Assembly: GCA_000004695.1 (NCBI GenBank)
Contig: CM000154.2
Span: forward strand, 3,200,001-3,264,000
Reading direction: 5' to 3'
Length of the DNA: 64,000 bases
Origin: Dictyostelium discoideum
Lineage: Eukaryota
Part shown: one piece after another, positions 8,495 through 59,521 of the stretch
Position numbering within the stretch: position 1 is the first letter of the stretch
Layout of the letters: each line of letters opens with the position of its first letter
The notes under the pieces: generated by a model
Databases searched by the model: none
What the model was told of the DNA's origin: nothing
Seen by the model: only the letters and a program-made list of their open reading frames with translations
Position numbers and translations under genes: made by a program

Positions 8495-10036
8495 TTATTT
8501 TCTTTGTTTTAATAAAGAGGCTTCACTTGCCCAAAGTTGTAATAATTTTGATTCAATTTCACGAGCTTGAGTGACAGAAGGTGGATCTAATGGATTTGGA
8601 TATCTAAGATCTAAATGATGAGCACCACCTTCAATGGTAAGAGCAACGATTGAATCTGAACGAGTTTCTAAAATACCACCAGATCTCCAAACATCGAGTA
8701 CACCATTTGAAAAGATGATATTAGTGGCAGAGAAATTACTACCACCATAATAGGTAGTAATCCAATATGGATCTGGGGTAGTTTGAAATTGTTGTTGGCA
8801 TTGTTGAGTTAAATCAGATAAAGAGAATGGTGAAGGTGGGAAGAAATCATTTACACCATCTGAACTTACAGGCATAACCATTTCAGTACATGCTTGATAA
8901 TTCCAACTTGCATCACCCAATGCACCAGTGGTAAATACAGACATGTTATAGCAAGTACCAGCTTGACCAGTGTAGTTATAGTAAACATGTAACACCTCCA
9001 AGAGTCCTTGAATATCGTCTTCTTGTTGAGCCAAAGCACTACAAGATACATTGATTGGGTAACCTGGCATTGGTTCTAAAAAGTTTGCTGGATATGGGTA
9101 GTCTGCCATGGCCATATAAGTTAAAGCAGACTCAATCCAATTGATTAAATCATTAACATCGGTCAATGGTGCACCACAAACTGAGAAAGTTTTACTCAAT
9201 TGTGCTAAACCATTGGATTGTGTTGAAATGGTGACGATATCATTCAAAGCCGATCTGATACGAGATGCACATGTGCCTTCAGAGCTTGTGTCTTTAAAAT
9301 CATCAGTGGCAATCTTATTGAATGTCTCTGGATTTACACCAGTATTTAAAAAACTAAGAATTGGTGCACTTGCTGCCAATGCACCATCGACAATGTTTGG
9401 ATATTTCATTCTAAACCATGCAGTTAGCATACCACCATATGAGCCACCCACTGAAAGTACTGGACAATGCTCTGCACCCATCTCTGACAAAACAGCTGGT
9501 ATCAATTGTGCATAGTCTGCCAATGCTTGCTCACTTGTTAAATATCCAATATTATCAGATGTCCATGAGTCATTACCAAATGGTAATGATTCACCATAGT
9601 AACGATGTTCAGCAAAAATTAATAATGCATTCATTTCTTGTGCTAATACATTGGTTACAAATTGTGAATTATCATAGAACAATGTTATATCACCTTCATT
9701 ACCTGTATAGAAAAGTATTGGTCCTTGACATACTTTATCATTTGGTGATGGTTTTTTCCAATAAACATCTGATACTAAATATCTTTGTGCAAATTCACCT
9801 TTTGATTGAAAATTAAAATGATCTAATGTTTGTAAAAAAAAAAGTTCTTGATATGGTGGTGGTGGTGGTGGTGGATCATTAGAAACAAAGTGTTGTTCTT
9901 GTTCTTGTTGTTTTCTATCTACATGTTTTTTACTATAATATGGAAATGGTGATCTATATCTTTGATATAATTGTTCTTTACAATTAATAATTGATATTAA
10001 TGATAAAATTATTAATAATTTAAAAACCACCATCAT
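8495..10036 (-). CDS. Serine carboxypeptidase of the S28 family (lysosomal Pro-X carboxypeptidase / PRCP-like); secreted, single exon
   Basis: N-terminal signal peptide MMVVFKLLIILSLISIINC. S28 hallmarks: FYTGNEGDI, ALLIFAEHRYYGESLPF, catalytic GGSYGGMLTAWFRMKYP, and a C-terminal HH..DLR block. Confidence 0.85.
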   Translation of the reverse strand: MMVVFKLLIILSLISIINCKEQLYQRYRSPFPYYSKKHVDRKQQEQEQHFVSNDPPPPPPPYQELFFLQTLDHFNFQSKGEFAQRYLVSDVYWKKPSPNDKVCQGPILFYTGNEGDITLFYDNSQFVTNVLAQEMNALLIFAEHRYYGESLPFGNDSWTSDNIGYLTSEQALADYAQLIPAVLSEMGAEHCPVLSVGGSYGGMLTAWFRMKYPNIVDGALAASAPILSFLNTGVNPETFNKIATDDFKDTSSEGTCASRIRSALNDIVTISTQSNGLAQLSKTFSVCGAPLTDVNDLINWIESALTYMAMADYPYPANFLEPMPGYPINVSCSALAQQEDDIQGLLEVLHVYYNYTGQAGTCYNMSVFTTGALGDASWNYQACTEMVMPVSSDGVNDFFPPSPFSLSDLTQQCQQQFQTTPDPYWITTYYGGSNFSATNIIFSNGVLDVWRSGGILETRSDSIVALTIEGGAHHLDLRYPNPLDPPSVTQAREIESKLLQLWASEASLLKQRK

Positions 10037-11023: not shown

Positions 11024-11028
<5 letters not shown>

Positions 11029-12298
11029 TTCCAGTAATAATAAAACCTTTACTCTTCTCTCAAATAGAGATATAGAAATTTGTATTGATGAAAATAATAA
11101 TGAGTTTATTGAATGTAAGTTTTATTGATATAATAAATTTTTTTTTTTTTAAAATGAATGATATATCTTCAGATTATTCTAATTACAAAATATAGATGAA
11201 TATATAAAGTTTTACATCTCAATAGATAGTGATTCATTCAAATTAGATGATAATGATTGTATAGCATTAAAAGACATTAGTGATATTTCAACAAAATTAA
11301 AAAATCAATTACCTTCAAATGTAATGCTATTGGATGGATTTAATCAAAAATTAACACCAGGTTTACTACCAGATGGTATTGAATCATTATATTTAGGTGA
11401 TATTAAATATGAATTAATGATTGGTTCAATTCCTAATACTGTAACGAGTGTCTATTTATTAGATGGATTCAATCATAAATTAGTGCCAGGTATATTACCA
11501 AAAAGTGTTTATTCTTTATATTTAGGTGATATAAACCGAAAATTAAAAATTGGTTCAATTCCTAACACTGTAACGTGTGTTCATTTATTGGATGGATTTA
11601 ATCAAATATTAACACCAGGTATAATACCAGATGGTGTCAAATGGTTGTATTTACATGATATAGAACAGGAGTTGATAATTGGTTCAATTTCAAGCACTGT
11701 AAAGAATATATGTTTAGAGGATGGATTTAATCAAAAATTAACACCAGGTATATTACCAGATGGTATTGAATGGTTGTATCTACATGATATAGAACAAGAA
11801 TTAATAATTGGTTCAATTCCTAATACTGTAAAGAATGTATATTTAGAAAATGGATTCAATCAAAAATTAATACCAGGTATATTACCAAATAGTGTTGAAT
11901 GGTTGTTTTTAGGTGAAATTCAAAAAGAATTAATGATTGGTTCAATTCCTAATACTGTAATCCATGTCACTTTATTTGATGTATTTAATCAAAAACTAAC
12001 ACCAGGTATATTACCAGATAGTGTTAAATGGTTGGGTTTATATGATATAGAACAAGAATTAATGGTTGGATCAATTCCTAATACTGTAGAGGGTATCTAT
12101 TTATTTGATGGATTCAATCAAAAATTAACACCAGGTATATTACCAGAAGGCGTTGAATGTTTGTTTTTATATGATATTAAACAAGAATTAATGATCGGTT
12201 CAATTCCTAATACTGTAAAGAAAGTATTTATTTATAAAAGTTTTAAACAACAAATTGAACCTTATGTTTCTGATATTGTTAAAATAACTAAATATTAG
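11024..12298 (+). CDS. FNIP-repeat protein, short 5' form. Exons 11024..11114 and 11196..12298; exon 1 corresponds only to the tail of the B-box-family exon 1.
   Basis: Exon 1 MISSNNKTFTLLSNRDIEICIDENNNEFIEC, then GTAAGT donor and atatag acceptor, in-frame junction (phase 1) into about 14 FNIP repeats (GFNQKLTPGILPD..GSIPNTV). Confidence 0.55.

Positions 12299-12356
<58 letters not shown>
12299..12356. repeat. poly(A) tract of about 58 nt
   Basis: Direct reading. Confidence 0.9.
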
Positions 12357-12360
<4 letters not shown>

Positions 12361-12934
12361 CAATCCTTAAATAAACCCAATTTATTTTTGAATTTTTAAA
12401 ACTCTTTTCAGGATTTTATTTTTAAAACCTAAGGGGGGAATTTTTTAAAATAATATTAAAAAAATAAAAATTTTGTAAAAAAAAGGTAAACCAAATAAAA
12501 AATTGGAATTCGGGGGTTAAAAAAATTTTTTTTTATTTTTTTAATCAACACTAACCACATTTCCAGGTGATTATGTTCCATGTAGTAGTATTAGTAGTGG
12601 TGGTAGTAGATCCCACAAACTTCAGCTCAACTAAAAACCATTAGATCATCAACATCCTTAGAAATATCAACAAACCTTAAATGATCACCATTATACATGA
12701 AAAATAGTTACATTGAAATGTTTATCCTCAAAATATCACTCACAAACATCAAGATTTGAATTTTTTCTAATAAAAAATAAAAAAAAATTATTATAAAAAA
12801 AAAAAAAAGAAACCATATAAATCTTTGACATATGAAAAAAAAAAAAAAAATGGTTATTTTCATCGAGAGTTTCTTTTCCATTTAACAACACGAAAAAAAA
12901 AAGTATATTAGAAAATAAAAAAAAAAAAAATGGA

Positions 12935-13100
12935 TCGCAAGATATTATTTTTTTCTTAATTTTTTAAGTGATTTTATTTTTTATTTTTTATTTTTTTATT
13001 TTACGATTTTGTTTTTTACCCCTATAAAAAATTTCTAGCCACAAAATTTTAAAAATAATTTTTTTTTTTTTTTTTTATACAAATTAATTTTCCAAACACA
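12935..13100 (+). promoter_or_regulatory. Conserved 5' flank/promoter block of the B-box-FNIP family, TATA-like ccctataaaaaatttc. Nearly identical copy at 16686..16854; partial copy at about 34030..34216.
   Basis: About 165 bp nearly identical between copies, ending at the start codon. Confidence 0.5.
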
Positions 13101-15446
13101 ATGATATCCAATCAAAATATAATAAATAATAATATTGATAATAATAAAAAGTGTACACTTCACCCAAACAAAGATATAATATTCTTTTGTTTAGATTGTA
13201 AATTAATACCATGTTGTATTCAATGTATATCAAGTAAAGGTGAACATCATGGTCATAAAACTGATCCATTAGAATCAACTTCAAATATTCTTTCATTAAT
13301 GAATAATTTTAAAGATGATGTATATCAAAAAGTAATTGACAGAATAGAAACCAATGAAAAAATATTAAAACAATCAAATGATAAATACAATGAAATTCAA
13401 TCACAATTTGATATTAATAATAATTCATTAAAAAAAGAAATTAAAAAAATTCATGATATCATTTCAATCATAGAATTAGATATTCAAAAACAATTAGAAA
13501 CAACCTTTGAAAATAATACATTAATAAATACAATTATAACTTCTTCAATCAATAATGATAATCAAATACTTTCAACTATAATTAATTATAAAAATGAAAA
13601 TGAAAATGAAAATGAAAATGAAAATGAAAATGAAAATGAAAATGAAAATGAAAATGATAATATTACAACCATTGAAAAATTAAATCAAATTATAAAATTT
13701 AATGATCAACAAATTTATGATAATGGAGATGATTTTATTATCGATAGAGATACTATTAAAATTATTAAACAATATCAACAATCATTAATAGTATTAAATA
13801 ATAATAATAATATCGATTATTCAAATAAATTAAATGAATACGATAATCAAATCATTCATTTCAATAATCAGATAATTGATGATATTAAAAATAATTTAAA
13901 ATCAATTTATACCTTAGATAATTGTAGATTTAAAATTGAATTTGATGAAAATAATAATAAATTTTTTAAATGTAAGCTTTAAACAGTTTTTTTTTTTAAT
14001 AAATGATTTTCACATTACTAATTACCAAATATAGGTGATATTAAACAAGAATTAATAATTGGTTCAATTCCTAATACTGTAACGAATATATCTTTAGAAG
14101 ATGGATTCAATCAAAAATTAACACCAGGTATATTACCAGATAGTGATGGATGGTTGAGTTTAGGTGATATTAAACAAGAATTAATAAATGGTTCAATTCC
14201 TAATACTGTAACTCATGTCTCTTTAAAAGATGGATTCAATCAAAAATTAACACCAGGTATATTACCAGATAGTGTTAAATCCTTGTTTATAGGTGATATT
14301 AAACAAGAATTAATGATTGGTTCAATTCCTAATACTGTAACTCATGTCTATTTAGATGATGGATTCAATCAAAAATTAACACCAGGTATATTACCAGATA
14401 GTGTTGAATCGTTGTATTTAGGTGATATTAAACAAGAATTAATAATTGGTTCAATTCCTAATAATGTAACTCATGTCTATTTAATAGATGGATTCAATCA
14501 AAAATTAACACCAGGTATATTACCAGATAGTGTTAAATCGTTGGATTTAGGTGATATTAAACAAGAATTAATAAATGGTTCAATTCCTAATACTGTAAGG
14601 AGTGTCTCTTTAAAAGATGGACTCAATCAAAAATTAACACCAGGTATATTACCAGATAGTGTTAAATTGTTGTATTTAGGTGATATTAAACAAGAATTAA
14701 TAATTGGTTCAATTCCTAATACTGTAACTCATGTATCTTTATTTGATGGATTCAATCCAAAATTAACACCAGGTATATTACCAGATAGTGTTGAATGGTT
14801 GTATTTAGGTGATATTAAACAAGAATTAATAAATGGTTCAATTCCTAATACTGTAAGGAGTGTCTCTCTAAAAGGTGGATTCAATCAAAAATTAACACCA
14901 GGTATATTACCAGATAGTGTTGAATCGTTGGATTTAGGTGATATTAAACAAGAATTAATAATTGGTTCAATTCCTAATACTGTAGCTCGTGTCTCTCTAT
15001 TGGATGGATTCAATCAAAAATTAACACCAGGTATATTACCAGATAGTGTTAAATTGTTGTATTTAGGTGATATTAAACAAGAATTAATAATTGGTTCAAT
15101 TCCTAATACTGTAGCTCGTGTCTCTCTATTGGATGGATTCAATCAAAAATTAACACCAGGTATATTACCAGATAGTGTTGAATGGTTGGATTTATGTGAT
15201 ATTAAACAAGAATTAATGATTGGTTCAATTCCTAATACTGTAGCTCGTGTCTCTTTAAAAGATGGATTCAATCAAAAATTAACACCAGGTATATTACCAG
15301 ATAGTGTTGAATCCTTGTATTTAGGTGATATTAAACAAGAATTAATGATTGGTTCAATTCCTAATACTGTAAAGGAAGTTGATGTTTCCGAAAGTTTTAA
15401 ACTTCAAATTGAACCTTATGTCTCAAAAAATGTAAAAATAATTTAA
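13101..15446 (+). CDS. B-box zinc finger / coiled-coil / FNIP-repeat protein, the apparently intact family member. Exons 13101..13971 and 14035..15446.
   Basis: Exon 1 encodes a Cys/His B-box-like motif ([35 protein letters not shown]) plus a coiled-coil/low-complexity region with (EN)n. GTAAGC donor, atatag acceptor, phase-1 junction into about 19 tandem FNIP repeats ending ..QIEPYVSKNVKII. Confidence 0.65.
13598..13663 (+). repeat. (GAAAAT)n hexanucleotide repeat encoding (EN)n; copies also at about 17297..17368 and 34798..34850
   Basis: Direct reading. Confidence 0.9.
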
Positions 15447-15619
15447 TAAGGAATTTGCAGAGTGCTTTATTTTTAATGTTGAATTAAAAAATTTCTAGAA
15501 CTGTAAATGTTTCCAAAAGTTTTAAACTACAAAAAAAATCAACATAATGTAACAACTACTAGTCAAATTTTACAAGAAATTAAACCAACTAAACAATTAA
15601 CTAAACAAGAAACTGAAGC

Positions 15620-16171
15620 ATGCAATTCCAGAGGAACCAATTGAAGAATGTAATAAATCAACTACAACCACTGCAATTAAGATCATCTTCTTCATCTTCT
15701 TCATCTTCTTCATCTTCTTCAACAACAACAAAAACAACAACATCACCACAACAACAACAATTAGATTCGCCATTATCATTACCAGTTAATATTATTAATA
15801 TGCCAATGGATGATGATGAACTTATTAGTGATGGTACAATAAGTGGTGCTTAAACTAATGATGGTATCAATTATTGTACCTTCATTAGTTAAAGAATCAT
15901 CAAGAGAATCATTATTGGCTACAATTATTGATAATTCAACATTATCAACAACACCATCACCATCTCCAAAATTACCAACTCTTGAAAGTGTTGTAACTGC
16001 TAAACCATTGTTACATCATCATCTTCTTCTTCTTCAACCACCACTACTCAAACTAATAAAGTTTCTGGTGGTTCTGCTAAAGAAATTTGGACTAAAATTG
16101 ATCAAAATACTGCACCATCAACTCCATCTAAAATTTTACCAAAAAGATTACCTTCTCAATCAAATCTTAAT

Positions 16172-16254
<83 letters not shown>

Positions 16255-16265
16255 ATAATAATTAA
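15620..16265 (+). CDS. Low-complexity Ser/Thr/Pro/Asn-rich ORF set. Three overlapping frames each read like real protein, suggesting a frameshifted gene or sequence errors. Ends in (AAT)22.
   Basis: ORFs 15620..15853 and 15843..16265, plus a third open frame (IVTSSSSSSTTTTQTNKVSGGSAKEIWTKIDQNTAPSTPSKILPKRLPSQSNLNINNN...). No AT-rich intron separates them. Confidence 0.25.
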
Positions 16266-16854
16266 TTAAATAAATAAACAAAAAGAATAAATAAATAAAA
16301 ACAATAAATAAAAAAAAAAGATAATAAAATAAAACTACAATCTTAATTGAAAAAAAAAAAAAAAATAAATAAATAAATAAAATAAATAAATAAAATAAAA
16401 CTAGTTTTAATAAATCTAAAACTTTGTAAATATGTTTTGAAAAAAAAAAAAAAATTTTATTTTATTGTTTAACTAAATTTGGTTTAAAATTCAAATAAAG
16501 AACTATCTACTCTAAAAAAGAAACCCTTTTCAAATGATAATTGTTGAACACCATTTCTACAATCACTACCATCATGAGTAGAAATAATAAAATTCACTGT
16601 GTTGGGCAGTGAAATTTTATATAAAATTCCCTACAACACCAACTTTTCATTTTTTCATAAAATTTATTAAATTTATTATTAAATTGCGAGTAAGATATTA
16701 TTTTTTTCTTAATTTTTTAAGTGATTTTATTTTTTATTTTTTATTTTTTTATTTTACGATTTTTTTTTTTTACCCTATAAAAAATTTCTAGCCACAAAAT
16801 TTTAAAAATAATTTTTTTTTTTTTTTTTTTATACATATTAATTTTCCAAACACA

Positions 16855-18319
16855 ATGAAATCCAATCAAAATATAATAAATAATAATATTGATAATAATA
16901 AAAAGTGTACACTTCACCCAAACAAAGATATAATATTCTTTTGTTTAGATTGTAAATTAATACCATGTTGTATTCAATGTATATCAAGTAAAGGTGAACA
17001 TCATGGTCATAGAACTGATCCATTAGAATCAACTTCAAATATTCTTTCATTAATGAATAATTTTAAAGATGATATACATCAAAAAGTAATTGACAGAATA
17101 GAAATCAATGAAAAAATATTAAAACAATCAAATGATAAATATAATGAAATTCAATCACAATTTGATATTAATAATAATTCATTAAAAAAAGAAATTAAAA
17201 AAATTCATGATATCATTTCAATCATAGAATTAGATATTAAAAAACAATTATAACTTCTTCAATCAATAATGATAATCAAATACTTTCAACTATAATTAAT
17301 TATAAAAATGAAAATGAAAATGAAAATGAAAATGAAAATGAAAATGAAAATGAAAATGAAAATGAAAATATTACAACCATTGAAAAATTAAATGAAATTA
17401 TAAAATTTAATGATCAACAAATTTATGATAATGGAGATGATTTTATTATTGACAGAGATTCTATTAAAATTATTAAACAATATCAACAATCATTAATAGT
17501 ATTAAATAATAATAATAATATTGATTATTCAAATAAATTAAATGAATACGATAATCAAATCATTCATTTCAATAATCAGATAATTGATGATATTAAAAAT
17601 AATTTAAAATCAATTTATACCTTAGATAATTGTAGATTTAAAATTGAATTTGATGAAAATAATAATAAATTTTTTAAATGTAAGCTTTAAACAGTTTTTT
17701 TTTTAATAAATGATTTTCACATTACTAATTACCAAATATAGGGAATAATTTAAAGTTTTATATTTATATAGAAGGTGGTTTTTTTAAATTTGAGGAAGGT
17801 ATAGCATTCAAAGACAATTGTAATATTTTATCAGAATTAAAAAATAAATTACCATCACATGTAATGCTGTTGGACGGATTCAATCAAAAATTAACACCAG
17901 GTATATTACCAAATCGAGTTAAGTGCTTGTATTTAGGTGATATTAAAAAAGAATTAATAATTGGTTCAATTCCTAATACTGTAACTCTTGTCTCTTTATT
18001 GAATGGATTTAATCAAAAATTAACACCAGGTATATTACCAGATAGTGTTGAATCCTTGAATTTAGGCGATATTAAACAAGAATTAATAATTGGTTCAATT
18101 CCTAATACTGTAACGAATGTATCTTTAAAAGATGGATTCAATCAAAAATTAACACCAGGTATATTACCAGATGGTTTAGAATCGTTGTGTTTAGGTGATA
18201 TTAAACAAGAATTAATAATTGGTTCAATTCCTAATACTGTAAAGAAAGTAAAAGTTTTCCAAAGTTTTAAACATCAAATTGAACCTTATGTCTCAAAAAA
18301 TGTAAAAATAATTCAATAA
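16855..18319 (+). pseudogene. Second B-box-FNIP copy (tandem duplicate of 13101..15446). Exon 1 is frameshifted by a 40-bp deletion; exon 2 (17742..18319) is intact but has only 5 FNIP repeats.
   Basis: Nearly identical to copy 1 through 17250. There, relative to copy 1, the segment gaaacaacctttgaaaataatacattaataaatacaatta is missing between two caatta direct repeats, so the frame is lost. The downstream coding-like sequence is retained out of frame. Confidence 0.55.
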
Positions 18320-18719
18320 GGAATTTGCAGAGTGCTTTATTTTTAATGTTGAATAAAACGATTTCTAGAACTGTAAATGTTTCCAAAAGTTTTAAACTAC
18401 AAAAAAAATCAAATCAAATCAAATCAAAAATCGTTTCTTGTCAAAAAAAAATTAAATTAAATTATACCAAATCAAATTGTTTCTTTTGAAAAAAAAAAAT
18501 AAAAATAAAATAAAAATAAGCCCTGGTGTTTCTGATTTTTTTGCGAATTATATATTTTATTTTATTTTTTTTAATATTTTTTATTTTAATTGTGTGAACA
18601 AATAATAAAATAAAAAAAAAAAAATTGTTCATTAATTTATAATAAATAACAATAATAAATAAAGTTTTTTTATTATACACAAAACAAATGCAAAAATTAA
18701 AAACACAACTTTGCAATAC

Positions 18720-18753
<34 letters not shown>

Positions 18754-19107: not shown

Positions 19108-22061
19108 ATGGTTGCAAAAGAAGATATAGCAAAGTTTTTATTAGGAAAAGGATATTATTTAACAGCATTAGAGTTTTATCAAGAATTATTAGAAGATGAT
19201 GGAACTGAATTAGAATCATTAAAGCAATACTTATTTGGTAATAAAAATGACAATAATAAAAATGACAATAATAATGGTAATGGTAGTGACTTTGATCCAA
19301 TCAAATCAATTAAAGAAAAAAATAAAAAAGAAAATAATAATAATAATAACAATAATGAAAATGAATCAATGAAATTAAAAGATGATAAAATATCATTATT
19401 AGAATATGAATTAAGACAATGTAAAGATGATTTATATAGAGTTAAAGCACAATACAATTTAGTTACTACTAATGGTAAATCTTCATCATCATCATCTTCA
19501 TCTACACAACCATCTTCTACAACTACTTCATCATCATCATCATCAATGAATGGTGTAGCATTATCAATATCAGAAGATGATAAAGATACATTAAAGGAAT
19601 TATCAAAAGAGAGAATTAAACAACATGAACTTAGAATATTGAATTATTTAGTAAAGAGTTATTTAAAAAAGAATAATTATACATTAACAGCAGTTTCAAT
19701 GTCTGAAGAGATTGAAGAGAATTGTCAACATTGGTCAGATGTTATCGGTAGTAAAGGTACACCTGAACCACCTTCAATTCTAACTATGTATCGTTACTTT
19801 TTTGAAAATGGTGATGCTGGTATTCAAGGTGCATTATCACGTTCAATGACTGAAATTACAAAACTTAAAAAAGATCTCTATGAAACTGAATCACAATGGA
19901 GAGAATCAAAAAAAAAGTTACAACAATTTCAAAAAGAAAAAGATGATTTAATTTTAAAAGTAATTAAATAATAAATAAATATAGATAGATATATATATAT
20001 TAACTTTTTTTTTCATTTTTAGAATAAAGAATTTGAAAATAAAATTGAAGAATTTAGTAGAAGAGGATTATTATCACCATTAAGATCATCACAAACATTA
20101 CAACAACAACAACAAACAGATTTAATATCAACAAGTAATAATATAGCATCACCACCAACTCATCAAAATGGTAAAAAACTATCACCAATAATTACAAGTA
20201 GTAATTCAACTATAAATGGTAATGTTGTAAATAATGGTATTGATATTACAAATTTATCAGTGATGAGAAAAACATTTAGAAATTTAATTGAAAAGAGAAG
20301 ACAAACTGTAGCATTTAGAATCGTATCGAATATGGATGATGAGAGTGAGATTTCTGTTAGAATAGCAGAGGAAGTTGATAAGATTAGAACATTGGATTCA
20401 GATAATCAAAGTATAGTAAAGATTGTAGCAGATTCGTTACCAAATATAGTACCAGGTGTGTTGATCAATAAGAGAGAGGAGTTGATACCATTGATATTGG
20501 TGGTGATCTCCAATCACCCCGATGAAACTGTACGTTTCTCATTGACAAAGTTATTATTTAATTTAATAAAGAAACCAAACGAAGTGCAACGTCATGTTAT
20601 AATGAGGGGTTGCATGGCGTTGGCTTCGTTCATCGGTCCACAGCGTACAGAGACTGAAATACTCTCACAATGTTGGGAACAGCTCTCTGAAAAATACCCA
20701 GAACGTAGAGTACTTGTGGCAGATTCTTGCGGTTGTCTATCACAATTTGCAAGTGCAGATTTACGATTGAGTTTGATTCTATCTATACTTCAACAATTGG
20801 GTGAAGATAAGAGTAGTCTAGTTCGAGAAAGTGTTGCAAAGAATTTCGCATTATTGGTAAACTTTTTCGATTCACCTGATAAATACAACCAAATTGAAGA
20901 ATCTTTTAAAAAGTTATTATACGATACAGATGTTGAAGTTTCAATTGCAACTAGATTCCACTTTTTACCATCATTAGCGAATTGGGCAGATCTATTGGAA
21001 TCATTAAATTCAAAATTAACAAATTTCTTATTAACTGAAATGTTATCAATTCTAATTAAATATTCAGCACAAAAAGATGAATTTAAAATTCCAGAACAAG
21101 ATACATTCAAATTAGATCAATTACTTCAATGTTTTATTGATTTAATACCAAGAATTCATCAATCTGTCATTTCTTCTTCAATCTTTATAAATGAAAAAGA
21201 TGCATTACAAATTGAAAATGAATATAATAAACAAGAAGCATTATATCAATTTCAAATTAATAATCAAAATCAAAATAATAATAATAATTCAACTACGACG
21301 ACAACTACAACAACAACTTCTACAAATACAAATAATTCATCATCATCATCAAATTCAACAACAAATAATAATAATAATAATAAAGATAATAAAACAATTG
21401 GTAGTAGTACAATTATAAATTCAGCAATTAGAATTTCAATTTTAGGTAATAATGAAATTTCAAAACTACAATCACAATTTGAAAATTATTTAATGACAAC
21501 AGTTGGTAATGAAGTTTCATCAAGTGGTTGGCCATCATTAGAATGGATTTCAAATGATTTCATTAATAAATTCATTAGAATTATATCATGTATACCATTT
21601 TATAATAGTACAGTGATAACAGGATTTTCAAAAGCATTGAATTTATTCTGTAAAACTTTTGGTACAGTTTTCACTAAACGTATTATAAAGAATGCTTTCA
21701 ATAAAGAGTTTCAAAAAGAATCAAATAACAATAGCAATAGCAGTAGTAGCAGCAATAATAATAATACAACATCAATTAAAAAGAATAGATTATTATCAAT
21801 ATACACTACTGGTGCTTTACAAACTTTAGAATCTTCAGAATTTATCACATTCTTAAAGGATTTAATTGTCCAAATTTCAATGGAAGAAAGAGGTTGGTTA
21901 CATTCTGATATTCCAGCTCTTGTGAAATGTATTGAATTACTTTGTGGTAATGTTTTCGATAAAAAGAAAGATGTTTGTGATTCTTTATGTGATTTAACTG
22001 CTAATCCTTCAAATCAAGTTAGATCTTGTATTTTAAATTTATTAAATTTCATTGTAAATAT

Positions 22062-23410: not shown

Positions 23411-24681
23411 ATGAAAATAAATTTATTTTCTTTAAAAATAATAATTATAATTTTAATAATAATTTCAAATTATTCATGTTTTAGTTTTAATTTAAATTAT
23501 TCAAATAATATTAATATTATACAAAAATGTTTTAAATGTTTAAATGTTTCAAAAACTTGTGAAACCATTGAAAATGATCAAATTGTAAAATCAAATAAAA
23601 CATTAATTTGTAGTGATCAACTTGGTTGTAAATCAAGATATTCACAACCATCAATGCATCCAAATAGGACATCAACATGTCATTTACAAGCTAAATATGG
23701 TGATCAATGTGAAACTGCAAGAGGAGGAGATTGTGGTTTTCAAATGATTTGTGATTATCCATTCGATATAACCAGACCACCAATTTGTGTAGGTTTTAAA
23801 GCATTACAATTTGGTGAAAAATGTCTTTGTGATTCTGAATGTGATAGTTTAATTTGTGATGAAAAAACATTAGTTTGTATTGAAAATAAAAATTCATGTA
23901 GAGTTAATCATTATTGGAATGGTACTATTTGTTTGAAAATCTCTGATACTCCATTCAATAATAATTATAATAATAATAACTGTACTTCTAATTCTCATTG
24001 TTCAATTTTTAATATTTGTAATAATGGTACTTGTATTGAAAAATACTCTTTAAAAGAAGATTCTTATTGTACTTCTGATTTGTCATGTGATATTTCAAAT
24101 TCATTAATTGTATGTAATTATTTATAAAAAGTTAAATATTTGCTTTTTGTTATTTTCATTGACTTTTTATTAATTTATTTATTTATTAATTTATTTTTTT
24201 TAAAAAGTGTGATGAAGGAAAATGTAAACCTTTTAAAAAATCAAATACAACAGATTGTCAAAAGGATGGATGTTTATTTGGATATGAATTTTGTAATTGT
24301 GATAGTGGATTATGTGAACAATCTAGGTTATTTAATAGTGAATGTAAGAAACTTCAAATTCAATTAGATGCATGTGTTTATGGAAGATGTGTTTACACTG
24401 GAGGTTATATTTCAAGTAATTCTTGTGTTATGAAAAATTGTGGTAGTTTAGTTTGTCAACATCATACTAAATGTACAAATGGTCCATGTGGTAATAATAA
24501 TTCTTCATTTTGTATATCAAATACTCATACACCAAATAGTAATAATATAGCAACATCTTCTGGGAAAAATCCTATTCCTAATGGAGGTAGTAGTTCTTCA
24601 AATTCTTCAAATACAATTCCAAAGATATCTTTTATTTTCATTATTTTTATAATAAATTTTATATTTTTATTTTTAATATAG
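23411..24681 (+). CDS. Secreted cysteine-rich protein with a GPI-signal-like hydrophobic C-terminus. Exons 23411..24109 and 24208..24681.
   Basis: Signal peptide MKINLFSLKIIIIILIIIS, many regularly spaced Cys (EGF/cysteine-knot-like), GTATGT donor, aaaaag acceptor. C-terminal Ser-rich stretch then IFIIFIINFIFLFLI. Confidence 0.6.
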
Positions 24682-25322: not shown

Positions 25323-27134
25323 ATGAAAAATTGTTTTTTCATTTTTTTAAAAATAATATTTGTTACAGTGATAATATCAAAATATAGTATTGGTGAAATA
25401 GTTAATACAAAATGTTATAAATGTTTAAATGAATTTAATGTATGTCAAACCATAGAAAATGATATACTGATCAAATTGAATGAAACTTTAATATGTAATG
25501 ATCAACTTGGTTGTGTATCAGATTATTCAATGCCATCAATGCATCCAGATAGAACATCAAGTTGTAATTCAAATCAAGGAAAATATGGTGATCAATGTGA
25601 AGTTGGAAATGAAGGATTTTGTGGTTATCAAATGACATGTGATTATCCATTCAATATAAGTTTAGCACCAACATGTGTTGGTTTTAAAACTTTACAACCT
25701 GGAGAGAATTGTATATGTAATTCAGAATGTAATAGTTTAATTTGTGATGAAAATAAATTAGTATGTATAGAAAATCAATACTCTTGTAATGTAAATTCAT
25801 ATTGGAATGGCACAACTTGTGAAAATATTTCAAATTTAGGTGATAGTTGTTCAAGTGATTCACAATGTTCAATTTTTAATACTTGCGAAAATGGAATTTG
25901 TATTGAAAAATACTCTTTAAATGAAAATTCTCTTTGTATTTCAGATTCTGCTTGTAATATTTCAAATTCATTAATTGTATGTATTAATTTATAATTTTAT
26001 AAAATTAAAAATAAAAAAAAAAAAAAAAAAACCTAATATTTTATTTTATTTTATTTTATTTTTTAATAGTGTATTGAAAGAAAATGTCAAGTTTTTAAGA
26101 AATCAAATACAACTAATTGTAAAATTGATGGATGTTTAAAAGATTATGAATATTGTAATTGTGATAGTGGATTATGTGAACAATCAAAAATATTTAATGA
26201 TGAATGTAAATATATACAATATCAATTAGATGCATGTGTTTATGGAAGATGTGTTTACACTGGAGGTTATGTTTCAAGTAATTCTTGTGTTATGAAAAAT
26301 TGTGGAAGTTTAGTTTGTCAACATCATACTAAATGTACAAATGGTCCATGTGGTAATAACAATTCTTCATTTTGTATTTCAAATACATATATACCAAATA
26401 ATATTACCTTACCCAATAGTCCAACAAATAATAGTGAAAATAGTTCTTCAAATTCAACACATAGTAGTGAATCAATAGGTAGTAGTGGTAGTAACAGTAG
26501 TAATAGTAACAGTAGTAATAGTAGCAGTAGTAGTAATAGTAATAGTAGCAGTAGTAGTAATAGTATTAGTAATAGTAGCAGTAATAGTAATAGTAATAGT
26601 AGCAGTAATAGTATTAGTAATAGTAGCAGCAGTAGTAGTAGTTCTTCAGATAGTAATGAAACTGCAGATGACAGTAGTTATTTAAATTCATCAAATGGTG
26701 GCGAGTCAATAGGCGAGGGTAGTACCCCATCTTCTAATTCAACAAATAGTAACGAGTCAATAGGTGATAGTGATAGTTTTTCAAATTCAAAAAATAGTGA
26801 ACCAATTGATGATGGCAGTAACAACTCAGTAAATAGTGATAGTTCTTCAAATTCAGCCATGGATAGAAGTAGTAGTAGTGGTAGTAACTCTTCTAATTCT
26901 ACTTTGGGATCAAAAGAAAATAGTTCTTTAAATTCTACAGACAGTGAGCCAAATGTAACTGCTCCCCCAAACACTGCAAACAATAATGGAACAAAAAATC
27001 ATTCTTTAAATGCAACAACTAGTAATGGATATTATCATAGTGATGAACTTTATATTCCTTCAAATTCAACAAATTCATCTCATTATTCATTTTCATTACT
27101 TTTATTTTTATTATCACTTTTAATTTTAAATTAA
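25323..27134 (+). CDS. Paralog of 23411..24681 with an added ~150-aa Ser/Asn-rich mucin-like stalk before the GPI-like tail. Exons 25323..25976 and 26070..27134.
   Basis: Same Cys framework (CYKCLNEFNVCQTIEND.., CVMKNCGSLVCQHHTKCTNGPCGNNNSSFCISNT), same intron position, (SNS)n repeats, C-terminus LLLFLLSLLILN. Confidence 0.6.
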
Positions 27135-34216: not shown

Positions 34217-36515
<2,299 letters not shown>

Positions 36516-37129
36516 AATTTAGAAAAACAATAATATTAGGTCAAATAAAACTATTCCAATAAAAAAAAATAATAAAAACAAAATTAAAACTTCACAACAA
36601 TTTTATAGAATTTTTTTATTTAGCCAATTTAGAACAATGATAAAACGCACAGATAATAAATAAGACAATTGTATACACCAAATTTGCCTATTTCAGAGAT
36701 CAATAAAGAAATAAGAAAAGAAATTAGATCAAATAATAAATATAGAATCAATATCCACGAGATATCTGAAAAAAAAAAAAAAAACTATTGACCCTCTTTA
36801 GAGATATAAAATAAAAAACATTGTATTCGTCTCACCATTTAAAACATTTAACTGATTATTTAAATAATAAATAAATAACAAATTAAAATAAAAATTAATA
36901 ATATCAATAACAAAAACCTGAAAAATCCTAGATCGTCATATTTAAATAGAAGGTAAATGCAAAAGAAAGAACTCTTGATGAATGGGAAACAATTATTTGA
37001 ATTTTCTGATTTTAAATTATAAAGAGTAGTTGATGATATTTTAACTAGTCCATTGTATTTTCAAAAAAAAATTTAAGAAATATTTAATCTTAAATCATTT
37101 TGTTTTTATTTTTTTTTTTTGCCAAAACA

Positions 37130-37445
37130 ATGATATTCAACCCCAATCATAACAAAATAAATAATATTGATAATAATAAACAGTTTACTTTACCTAAACA
37201 AAGAAATAATATTCTTTTGTTTAGATTGTAAATTAATACCATGTTGTATTCAATGTATATCAAGCAAAGGTGAACATCATGGTCATAAAACTGATTCATT
37301 AGAATCAACTTCAAATATTCTTCCATTAATGAATAATTTTAGATGGTGTGTTTCAAAAAGAAATTGAAAGAATAGAAATCAATCAAACAATATTAAAACA
37401 AATAAATGATAAATACAATAAAATTCAATAACAATTTGATAATGA
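37130..37445 (+). pseudogene. Degenerate fragment of B-box-FNIP family exon 1
   Basis: Retains [37 protein letters not shown] but has indels and stops on both sides. Lies about 250 bp from the formin 3' end. Confidence 0.5.
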
Positions 37446-58177: not shown

Positions 58178-59285
58178 TTAAGATGAAATATAATTTCTTA
58201 CAATGTTTACAGTATTAGGAATTGAATCAATTATTAGTTGTTGTTTAATATCATATAAATACAACGATTCAACACTATCTGGTAATATACCTGGTGTTAA
58301 TTTTTGATTGAATCCATCAAATAAATGGACATGAGTTACAGTATTAGGAATTGAACCAATTATTAATTCTTTTTTAATATTACCTATATACAACCATTTA
58401 ACGCTATCTGGTAATATACCTGGTGTTAATTTTTGATTGAATCCATCTTCAAAACAGACACTCGTTACAGTATTAGGAATTGAACCAATCATTAATTCTT
58501 GTTTAATATCATATAAATACAACGATTCAACACCATCTGGTAATATACCTGGTGTTAATATTTGATTGAATCCATCTAAGAGCATTACACTTGATGGTAA
58601 TTGATTTTTTTTTAATTTTGATAAAATATCACAATTGTCTTTGAATGCTATACAATCCTTATTATCTCCCCATGAAAGTCTATCTGTATTAATATAAAAT
58701 TTTAAATCATAATCTAAAATTGGTAATTAGAATAATGATTTAAAATTGTCAATGAGAAAAATTTTAAAATTTTTAATATGCATATTAACAAAACTTACAC
58801 TTAATAAATTCATTGTTATTTTTATCGATTTCTATTTTGAATCTATCATTACTTTTATTTAGGGAATAAATTGATTTTAAATTATTTTTAATATCATCAA
58901 TTATTTGATTATTGAAATGAATGATTTGATTATCGTATTCATTTAATTTATTTGAATTATTGATATTATTATTATTATTTAATACTATTAATGATTGTTG
59001 ATATTGTTTAATAATTTTGATTGTATCCCTATCAATAATAAAATCATCTCCATTATCATATATTTGTTGGTCATTAAATTTTAAAATTTCATTTAATTTT
59101 TCAATGGTTGTAATAATTTCATTTTCATTTTCATTTTCATTTTTATTTTCATTTTTATTATTATTATTATTAATTATAGTTGAAAGTATTTGATTATCAT
59201 TATTGATTGAAGAAGTTATAATTGTATTTATTAATGTATTATTTTCAAAGGTTGTTTGTAATTGTTTTTTAATATCTAATTCTAT
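58178..59285 (-). pseudogene. 5'-truncated B-box-FNIP family copy on the minus strand. Coiled-coil and FNIP parts are present; the B-box part is absent.
   Basis: Minus strand encodes a homolog of the family exon-1 tail (58800..59285, including (EN)n). The ~95-bp intron runs from the GTAAGT donor at about 58795 to the acag acceptor at about 58700. Six FNIP repeats follow (58178..58585). Homology stops abruptly near 59285, about 400 bp from the tRNA-Met cluster. Confidence 0.5.
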
Positions 59286-59521
59286 GATTGAAATGATATG
59301 AATTTTTAAAATTTTTTTTTTAAATTTTTTTTATTTTCACAATAGATTTTAATGCAAAAAACAGTTTTTCTTTTTTATTATACCATGGTTTTAAAATGCT
59401 ATTTATATAAACCAATACAGAAATATAAAAAGATTTAACTTTTTTGTGGGTTGGAAAAATTTATAATAAAAAGCTTTATGCAAAAAAGCTGGCGGACCAA
59501 TTTTTTTCAAAAAATCAACAT

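Follow-up and report, generated by a model that had tools for sequence, protein, structure and literature searches.

Probable in-situ duplication and later remodelling of a B-box/FNIP-repeat gene cassette in laboratory Dictyostelium discoideum

How did two closely similar genes of one family come to lie side by side in the genome of Dictyostelium discoideum, and does their history amount to growth of that family? The question is raised by a stretch of 64,000 nucleotides (assembly GCA_000004695.1, contig CM000154.2, positions 3,200,001 to 3,264,000 of the forward strand), hereafter the window, which is chromosome-5-type sequence of the NC4/AX laboratory lineage with a base composition of ~22% GC and introns of the GTAAG type. 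The genes considered here, an upstream copy A and a downstream copy B, are plus-strand neighbours belonging to a B-box/FNIP-repeat family. A sequence-only reading of the window had described them as a 3.75-kb tandem duplication carrying promoter, gene and 3' flank, had proposed this as the mechanism of family growth and had asked whether the second copy might be an assembly artefact. The comparisons reported below make it probable that a gene cassette was duplicated in situ, recently and within the NC4/AX laboratory lineage, and that its repeat arrays were remodelled afterwards.

Alignment of A with B using BLAST returns two collinear blocks with E-values that are effectively 0, excluding a chance origin of the similarity. 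The 5' block (12939-14035 versus 16692-17742) comprises the upstream block, exon 1 and the intron and is 97-98% identical, indels aside, whilst the 3' block (14997-15542 versus 17867-18412) is 546 bp long, ungapped and 92.3% identical and takes in 96 bp of 3' flank. Recurrence of the upstream block, seen already in the sequence-only reading, was borne out, although it starts at 12939/16692 and not at 12935/16686. Over this block (12939-13100 versus 16692-16854) the homology covers 162 nt, with four substitutions and a 1-nt indel in a T run (96.9% identity, E 1e-77), and ccctataaaaaatttc is found in both copies, at 13020-13035 in A and 16773-16788 in B. The first exons differ by 12 substitutions across ~825 aligned nt and the introns by a single 1-nt indel. 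The 3' flank also recurs as had been reported, at 15447-15542 and 18317-18412, with 3 mismatches in the 95 nt scored.

The distance between the copies is not constant. From ATG to ATG (13101 to 16855) it is 3,754 bp, the spacing originally given, after the two exon-1 indels it becomes 3,714 and then 3,708 bp, and at the 3' end it is 2,870 bp; therefore, no single 3.75-kb period exists. Homology begins and ends abruptly (at 12939/16692 on the left and 15542/18412 on the right), giving copy lengths of 2,604 bp (A) and 1,721 bp (B), and 1,149 bp of unrelated DNA separates the two. As this spacer is not itself duplicated within the window, the repeated unit is the gene cassette, and a duplication of 3.75 kb was an overstatement. 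Strict head-to-tail adjacency with the whole period repeated is likewise absent, the spacer recurring neither before A nor after B. What remains of the original description is its core: putative promoter, gene and 3' flank were copied together, as a whole cassette, with both copies in direct orientation on the plus strand at one locus.

That both copies exist is supported by a second genome. Positions 12544-18721 of the window are 100% identical to an assembly of a sister laboratory strain (L001; GCA_054883475.1, CM142511.1). Nearby, the two sequences differ in homopolymer lengths and in one cluster of 17 mismatches at 12357-12543, and L001 is therefore a separate assembly. It is apparently one of ten assemblies built de novo from Illumina and Nanopore reads (PMC12745789) and is most likely the laboratory strain AX2-214, judging from its near-identity to the window and from a shared AX4 protein: the peptidase S28 gene at 8495-10036 on the minus strand encodes a protein identical to one on CM142511.1, and the AX4 entry XP_636095.1 falls in the same 90% cluster. 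A repeat that was collapsed or expanded during assembly, with a second copy that does not exist, is consequently very improbable. Repeat-rich DNA of ~20% GC is difficult to assemble, and the window and L001 do differ in homopolymer lengths and in the mismatch cluster. However, artefactual copies would be near-identical, whereas A and B differ by ~70 substitutions and by length differences of 40, 195 and 1,032 bp and possess their own flanks, and the same 6.2 kb is recovered exactly in an independent de novo long-read assembly. The question of an artefact can thus be answered in the negative. The adjoining stretch at 12299-12543, an A58 homopolymer followed by the 17 mismatches to L001 within ~190 bp, looks like low-quality sequence in one of the two assemblies.

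The age of the duplication was approached by comparing strains and species. The syntenic interval, bounded by the peptidase S28 gene and a HEAT-like gene, was fetched via orthologs of the peptidase gene and scanned for family genes by tblastn. Across species the locus displays a stepwise gain of family members, from 0 to 1, 2 and 3 (Table 1; gene U is a further family member that lies upstream of A). Two isolates of D. discoideum from the wild and two cryptic relatives each have a single ortholog of A/B at the syntenic site. In exon 1, A and B are separated by a p-distance of 1.6-1.7%, and each lies 3-5% from these orthologs. A and B are also grouped together with 99.7% bootstrap support in a neighbour-joining tree of exon 1b and the intron. 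Close relatives thus carry the single-copy state and A and B are each other's closest relatives, a sister relationship that is not seen in the repeat arrays. In addition, the two copies share a derived 3' untranslated region (UTR) and, relative to the orthologs, a 16-nt deletion within a short echo of coding sequence that this region contains (see below).

The outer flanks of the pair correspond to the ancestral flanks of the single-copy state. Downstream of B, from 18489 on, the sequence corresponds to the DNA found after the gene in strains that have one copy. Upstream, the support consists of one short 23-mer, which precedes A in the window; in one D. cf. discoideum assembly (L006) it lies ~210 nt ahead of the sequence equivalent to the promoter of the single gene. 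Other comparisons of AT-rich intergenic DNA yielded mostly low-complexity matches, and when local alignment scores were tested against shuffled sequence, signal could not be told from the noise of A/T runs. The wild isolate ACTFIW has gained DNA here too, and its extra copy groups with window copy C, another member of the family, at 100% bootstrap; it is therefore an independent gain and not an ortholog of A. The C-type copy and N-terminal fragment of this isolate (L004, reverse-complement 14364-16462 and 16985-17065) lie in the same interval as A and the spacer do in the laboratory lineage. As different extra copies are found at one interval in ACTFIW and in the laboratory lineage, the gains were independent and recurrent.

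Table 1. Features of the A/B locus in the window, and family genes in the syntenic interval of the genomes compared
Feature	Position or locus	Strand	Remarks
Upstream-flank marker, ancestral (unique 23-mer)	12713..12735	+	once in window; ~205 nt upstream of the copy A promoter block
Copy A upstream block	12939..13100	+	putative promoter, judged by its motifs
Copy A exon 1	13101..13971	+	open frame from ATG at 13101; GTAAGC donor at 13972
Copy A intron	13972..14034	+	63 nt, GTAAGC...TATAG; phase-1 splice restores frame (T + GT = Cys)
Copy A exon 2	14035..15446	+	FNIP array and C-terminal tail; stop TAA at 15444-15446
Copy A 3' flank common with B	15447..15542	+	decayed echo at ~15491-15533
Spacer S	15543..16691	.	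unrelated to the gene family; no second copy in window
Copy B upstream block	16692..16854	+	putative promoter
Copy B exon 1	16855..17679	+	ATG at 16855; 40-bp frameshift deletion, junction at ~17244-17250
Copy B intron	17680..17741	+	GTAAGC at 17680, AG at 17740-17741
Copy B exon 2	17742..18319	+	65-codon pre-repeat segment at 17742-17936, FNIP units, C-terminal tail, stop at 18317-18319
Copy B 3' flank with echo	18317..18412	+	ancestral downstream flank continues beyond 18412
D. firmibasis	L009		no family genes in interval
D. citrinum	L008		one family gene in interval; one in all
D. cf. discoideum, two assemblies	L006, L007		U and one gene
D. discoideum ACTFIR	L005		U and one gene
D. discoideum ACTFIW	L004		U, extra C-type copy, N-terminal fragment and one gene
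Window and sister laboratory strain	window, L001		U, A and B

Copy A has an intact spliced open reading frame (ORF) of 760 amino acids. Its upstream block ends at the ATG and contains a TATA-like TATAAAAAA at 13023-13031 and an oligo-T run at ~13060-13078, motifs on which its designation, and that of its counterpart in B, as a putative promoter is based. Exon 1 encodes a B-box zinc finger (Pfam zf-B_box, PF00643; residues 14-57, 34 bits against a gathering cut-off of 24.1), a long helical or low-complexity region and NE repeats derived from an (AAAATG)11.8 microsatellite detected by Tandem Repeats Finder (TRF). The array in exon 2 consists of 10.4 units of 129 bp with 92% matches (TRF, 14032-15372), each unit encoding 43 residues, that is, two FNIP-type leucine-rich repeats (LRRs) of 21/22 residues, and the protein is a clear member of the FNIP family (PF05725; E 2e-113, 370.6 bits against a cut-off of 21, 11 stretches). 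A is shorter by 195 nt (65 codons) at the start of exon 2, where the missing segment would adjoin the splice acceptor and lie between two TAGG motifs. This segment precedes the first full repeat and is present in B, in the other family members C, E and U of the window and in all relatives retrieved.

Copy B, by comparison with A, lacks 40 bp of exon 1, corresponding to a segment that in A is flanked by two ACAATTA heptamers. Its loss shifts the frame, such that translation stops after 132 codons (ending ...ELDIKKQL*); further downstream, B is open in the shifted frame. As A, C, E and every ortholog examined have kept the segment, the lesion in B is derived. Given this disabling lesion relative to its intact relatives, B is most likely a young pseudogene. 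The N-terminal codons preceding it have changed little (6 differ of the 129 compared). Also in exon 1 is an in-frame 6-bp difference beside the (AAAATG)n microsatellite, which encodes an Asn-Glu repeat and is one unit longer in A (11.8 copies, 13591-13661) than in B (10.8 copies, 17305-17369); in the ACTFIR ortholog it is longer. The frame of exon 2 is open in B (WNNLKFYIYIEGG...KNVKIIQ*) and encodes an array of 2.9 FNIP double units (TRF, 17876-18250) that is recognized as FNIP by Pfam (E 8e-35, 119.2 bits, 3 stretches). The stop codon position of A is CAA in B, which ends at the next TAA. Taken together, the length of A equals that of B − 195 + 8×129 + 40 + 6 nt.

In the automated annotation of L001, gene models mapping to 13101-16258 and 16855-18319 of the window fuse A with decayed spacer ORFs into a product of 925 amino acids and give B as 302 amino acids (versus ~468 if it were intact); both look like prediction artefacts that run across the stop codon or the frameshift, and the pair is of some use as a caution in annotation. 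No exact match to the A protein, the truncated B product or the B exon-2 ORF was present in the protein collection searched, and no public gene name could be attached to them. The closest protein matches (P0004 and P0001) were dropped as comparators because their loci are non-syntenic. A further FNIP model of AX4, DDB_G0290101 (P0008), lies outside the window and contains an internal non-FNIP stretch that may resemble a retroelement-derived ORF, which would point to an insertion within a family member.

The spacer differs in kind from the cassettes. It contains frameshifted, plus-strand ORF pieces rich in Ser, Thr and Asn, then an (AAT)n run that leads into an AT-rich tail, together with the end of a short minus-strand ORF, and meets the cassettes at AAAAAAAATCAACATAATGTAACAAC (flank to spacer) and AAATTGCGAGTAAGATATTATTTT (spacer to promoter block). 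A search of the syntenic loci of other strains did not find it, and its ORF pieces match no Pfam family. Sequence related to its core (15921-16454) occurs elsewhere: the sister-strain assembly has a site of 91% identity on another contig, and a wild strain has one of 85% identity, where part of the core is also present inverted. No FNIP gene lies beside these dispersed copies, and neither terminal inverted repeats nor a target-site duplication was found at the ends of the spacer or the cassettes. The spacer thus appears to be dispersed-repeat or pseudogene material situated at the duplication junction. As a dispersed repeat, this element spans 15921-16533 in the window, 10407-10969 in L010 and 12748-13138 and 14543-14840 in L011; it encodes the decayed end of an S/T-rich ORF (…NKVSGGSAKEIWTKIDQNTAPSTPSKILPKRLP…), after which come (AAT)n and an A-rich tail, and its copies have been incorporated into different chimeric gene models in different annotations.

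A partial echo of the last coding repeat in the 3' flank had been taken as a sign of unequal crossing-over within the FNIP repeats. The echo itself is real: 15507-15533 matches 15382-15408 at 92.6%, and by reading the sequence the match can be extended to ~52 nt with a 9-nt gap (ATTTCTAGAACTGTAAA...TGTTTCCAAAAGTTTTAAACTACAA). In the 3' flank, the last partial unit and the C-terminal tail are repeated in decayed form at an offset of 125-134 nt, which is close to the 129-nt register and fits an old register-slip duplication of the 3' end of the gene. However, in ACTFIW and ACTFIR, where the ortholog is single-copy, it is accompanied by a longer echo of ~75 nt, and the echo can also be recognized in ACTFIY and, faintly, in C and U. 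It is therefore older than the A/B duplication and is uninformative about the mechanism by which that duplication arose.

Several observations weigh against a simple recent origin of the pair. The identity profile of A and B is a mosaic: the best identity between array units of A and B is 93%, whilst several units of A reach 95% when compared with those of the ACTFIR ortholog. In the aligned part of the arrays (14997-15323 versus 17867-18193) the synonymous divergence (dS) is 0.167 and the non-synonymous divergence (dN) 0.079, compared with a dS of ~0.035 in exon 1 (4 synonymous differences in 116 sites; Nei-Gojobori method throughout). Such a gap is unexpected for a single recent event, unless different ancestral units were kept by the two copies or the array was overwritten. 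The promoter homology between A and C starts at the same AAGAT position as that between A and B, as expected for homology-limited conversion tracts. Simple unequal crossing-over leaves the spacer unexplained and, furthermore, that B is dead and that the upstream block is a promoter are conclusions that we infer from sequence. Of the coding differences between A and B at the C-terminus, 7 of 8 are confined to 29 nt (15375-15403), the stretch that is echoed in the flank.

Part of this pattern may be attributable to gene conversion. Copy C, 21 kb away, is 2.9% from A/B in exon 1a and ~13% away in exon 1b, where it groups with the extra copy of ACTFIW. Adjacent segments of C are thus phylogenetically incongruent and, with one segment close and the next distant, gene conversion has been active in the cluster. 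The first ~350 bp of exon 1 would accordingly seem to have been homogenised among A, B and C by conversion. Seen as a whole, these data show that recombination or gene conversion probably shaped the A/B pair alongside duplication.

How far conversion reached is what separates a young pair from an old one. If a two-copy locus predated the split between laboratory and wild strains, the other lineages would have lost one copy and recent conversion would have made A and B alike over the first 1.1 kb and the final ~200 bp. The higher dS of the arrays would then date the pair, and A, B and the ACTFIR ortholog are indeed roughly equidistant in their array units; the conversion evident in C and the coincidence of the A/B homology boundaries with family-wide boundaries are also in keeping with such a history. 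Nevertheless, it requires at least one loss in four assemblies as well as two separate conversion tracts that reach exactly to the ends of the cassette, and the spacer is missing from every other strain examined. The extra copy in ACTFIW is of the C type and in another arrangement, with the ancestral proximal upstream sequence still beside the main gene there. In the window, moreover, the ancestral upstream marker precedes A and not B, and derived non-coding states of the 3' UTR are common to both copies. An old locus is therefore a serious but unlikely alternative. A mosaic could also have arisen without any conversion if diverged haplotypes had undergone unequal exchange in the sexual cycle and captured the junction insertion at the same time. 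Between wild strains, alleles of the ortholog do vary strongly in the length and unit content of their arrays, with 8, 6 and 4 unit starts detected by regular expression in ACTFIR, ACTFIW and ACTFIY, respectively, yet their exon 1 sequences are only ~3% apart. This sub-variant of a young in-situ duplication is indistinguishable from the parent model on these data and is regarded as improbable.

Movement of the gene by retroposition, or as cargo of a transposon, is hardly credible. The dispersed-repeat sequence with its A-rich tail in the spacer is the sole feature that recalls such an origin. In contrast to a processed retrocopy, A and B have each retained an intron and the upstream block; terminal inverted repeats and a target-site duplication are lacking, and dispersed copies of the spacer sequence occur with no FNIP gene adjacent to them. 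A young duplication in place is preferred to these alternatives because the closest relatives are single-copy, the spacer occurs in no other strain examined, the flanks fit and derived non-coding states are shared by A and B.

The duplication in the laboratory lineage may be reconstructed as follows. The cassette would have included a core promoter of ~160 bp, a gene with two exons, and 3' UTR amounting to ~95 bp; the predicted product of the gene joins a B-box zinc finger to a helical region and an array of FNIP-type LRRs. This cassette would have been copied once and in direct orientation at its own locus. A would have retained the ancestral upstream flank and B the ancestral downstream flank, as predicted for an in-situ duplication with an insertion at the junction. 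The 1,149 bp of foreign junction DNA could be filler acquired when a break was repaired or a template switched, or could have been inserted later. The copies would then have diverged mostly through slippage and microhomology-associated events and less through point mutation. In B, the loss of 40 bp between ACAATTA heptamers would have caused the frameshift and the stop at codon 133, and in A 195 nt would have been lost between TAGG motifs at the splice acceptor. The arrays may have drifted to their present 10.4 (A) and 2.9 (B) units, the microsatellite region would have come to differ by 6 bp and the stop codon of A is presumed to have arisen at what is a sense codon in B.

It is conceivable, although doubtful, that the interval between U and the HEAT-like gene is a recurrent landing site for whole FNIP cassettes of promoter, gene and 3' UTR. 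The basis for this suggestion is that the laboratory lineage gained a copy of the resident gene together with 1.15 kb of filler, and ACTFIW independently gained a C-type copy and an N-terminal fragment. If it were true, copy-and-paste by template switching or break repair, capturing dispersed repeat DNA, would be at work here rather than classical unequal crossing-over.

The processes proposed have precedents elsewhere. Complex tandem duplications with sequence inserted at the junction are produced by replication template switching, including fork stalling and template switching (FoSTeS) and microhomology-mediated break-induced replication (MMBIR), and by end joining with filler DNA. A and B resemble these in keeping their outer ancestral flanks, in the ectopic sequence at their junction and in having no long homology at the breakpoints; they differ in that the mechanism at A/B is deduced from its products and that insertion of the spacer after a clean duplication is equally possible. 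Clusters of plant nucleotide-binding LRR (NLR) and receptor-like kinase (RLK) genes evolve by birth and death, through local duplication, unequal crossing-over and gene conversion. They share with this locus paralogs in direct orientation, variable repeat number, conversion tracts, pseudogenes (here B, C, D and E) and copy-number differences between strains, but the organism and domain architecture differ. In protein architecture, the N-terminal B-box, long helical region and C-terminal repeat domain of A give it a resemblance, and only that, to TRIM/RBCC proteins, from which it is set apart by a C-terminal domain of LRRs instead of SPRY or NHL; no RING domain preceding the B-box was found among its Pfam matches.

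FNIP repeats (IP22, FGxxFN) are a structurally characterized LRR subclass of Dictyostelium and giant viruses, with 557 sequences reported in Dictyostelium (Huyton et al. 2022, PMC9525666). The strong FNIP matches of A and B, and a period equal to two repeats, place them in this family, in which they are distinguished by an N-terminal B-box and long helical region and, in the case of A alone, by absence of the 65-codon pre-repeat segment. Lineage-specific local duplication and shuffling between close strains has also been described for the tgrB/tgrC allorecognition locus in the same genomes (PMC12745789). That locus involves a different gene family on another chromosome, and A/B offer no evidence for a hypermutable hotspot or a recognition function.

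Whether the duplication enlarged the family is a separate matter. Six family members are present in the window and open reading frames are found only in A and in gene U, which has no B-box. The proposal that such duplication drives family growth holds in so far as a copy was gained at this locus; net growth is doubtful, as B is probably dead and C, D and E are decayed. Local duplication adds copies and decay removes them about as fast. In a large LRR family that evolves fast by birth and death, the A/B pair represents a single turn of the cycle, ordinary and nothing new in kind. It provides a clean, datable example of FNIP/LRR turnover in social amoebae, in which microhomology deletions and repeat slippage disabled one copy and reshaped the other while gene conversion obscured the record, and it marks a copy-number difference between laboratory and wild strains; it opens no new biological question.

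The remaining members vary in their state of preservation. Gene U (~11024-12298) has a short N-terminal exon and 6.9 FNIP double units; it is present in the D. discoideum and D. cf. discoideum assemblies and was not detected in D. citrinum or D. firmibasis. Copy C (34217-36515) is full length and carries frameshifts in exon 1 and in the array as well as an in-frame stop. Its first ~350 coding bp are 97% identical to A/B and the remainder ~87%, which points to a gene-conversion tract. Copy D (37117-37441), an N-terminal fragment of ~0.3 kb that is ~90% identical to A, lies ~2.9 kb downstream of the ATG of C, the two forming a second local pair of the same family. Copy E (58199-59323, minus strand), 89-92% identical to A/B, is truncated at both ends, so that neither the B-box region nor the C-terminus remains.

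Two further observations concern other genes of the window. The gene at 19108-19971 is not on record as a single-exon product. An unrelated family is represented by a direct-orientation pair (23513-24538 and 25397-26400) that is 79% identical over ~1 kb, the only Pfam result for which is a weak match to the EB module, below the curated cut-off.

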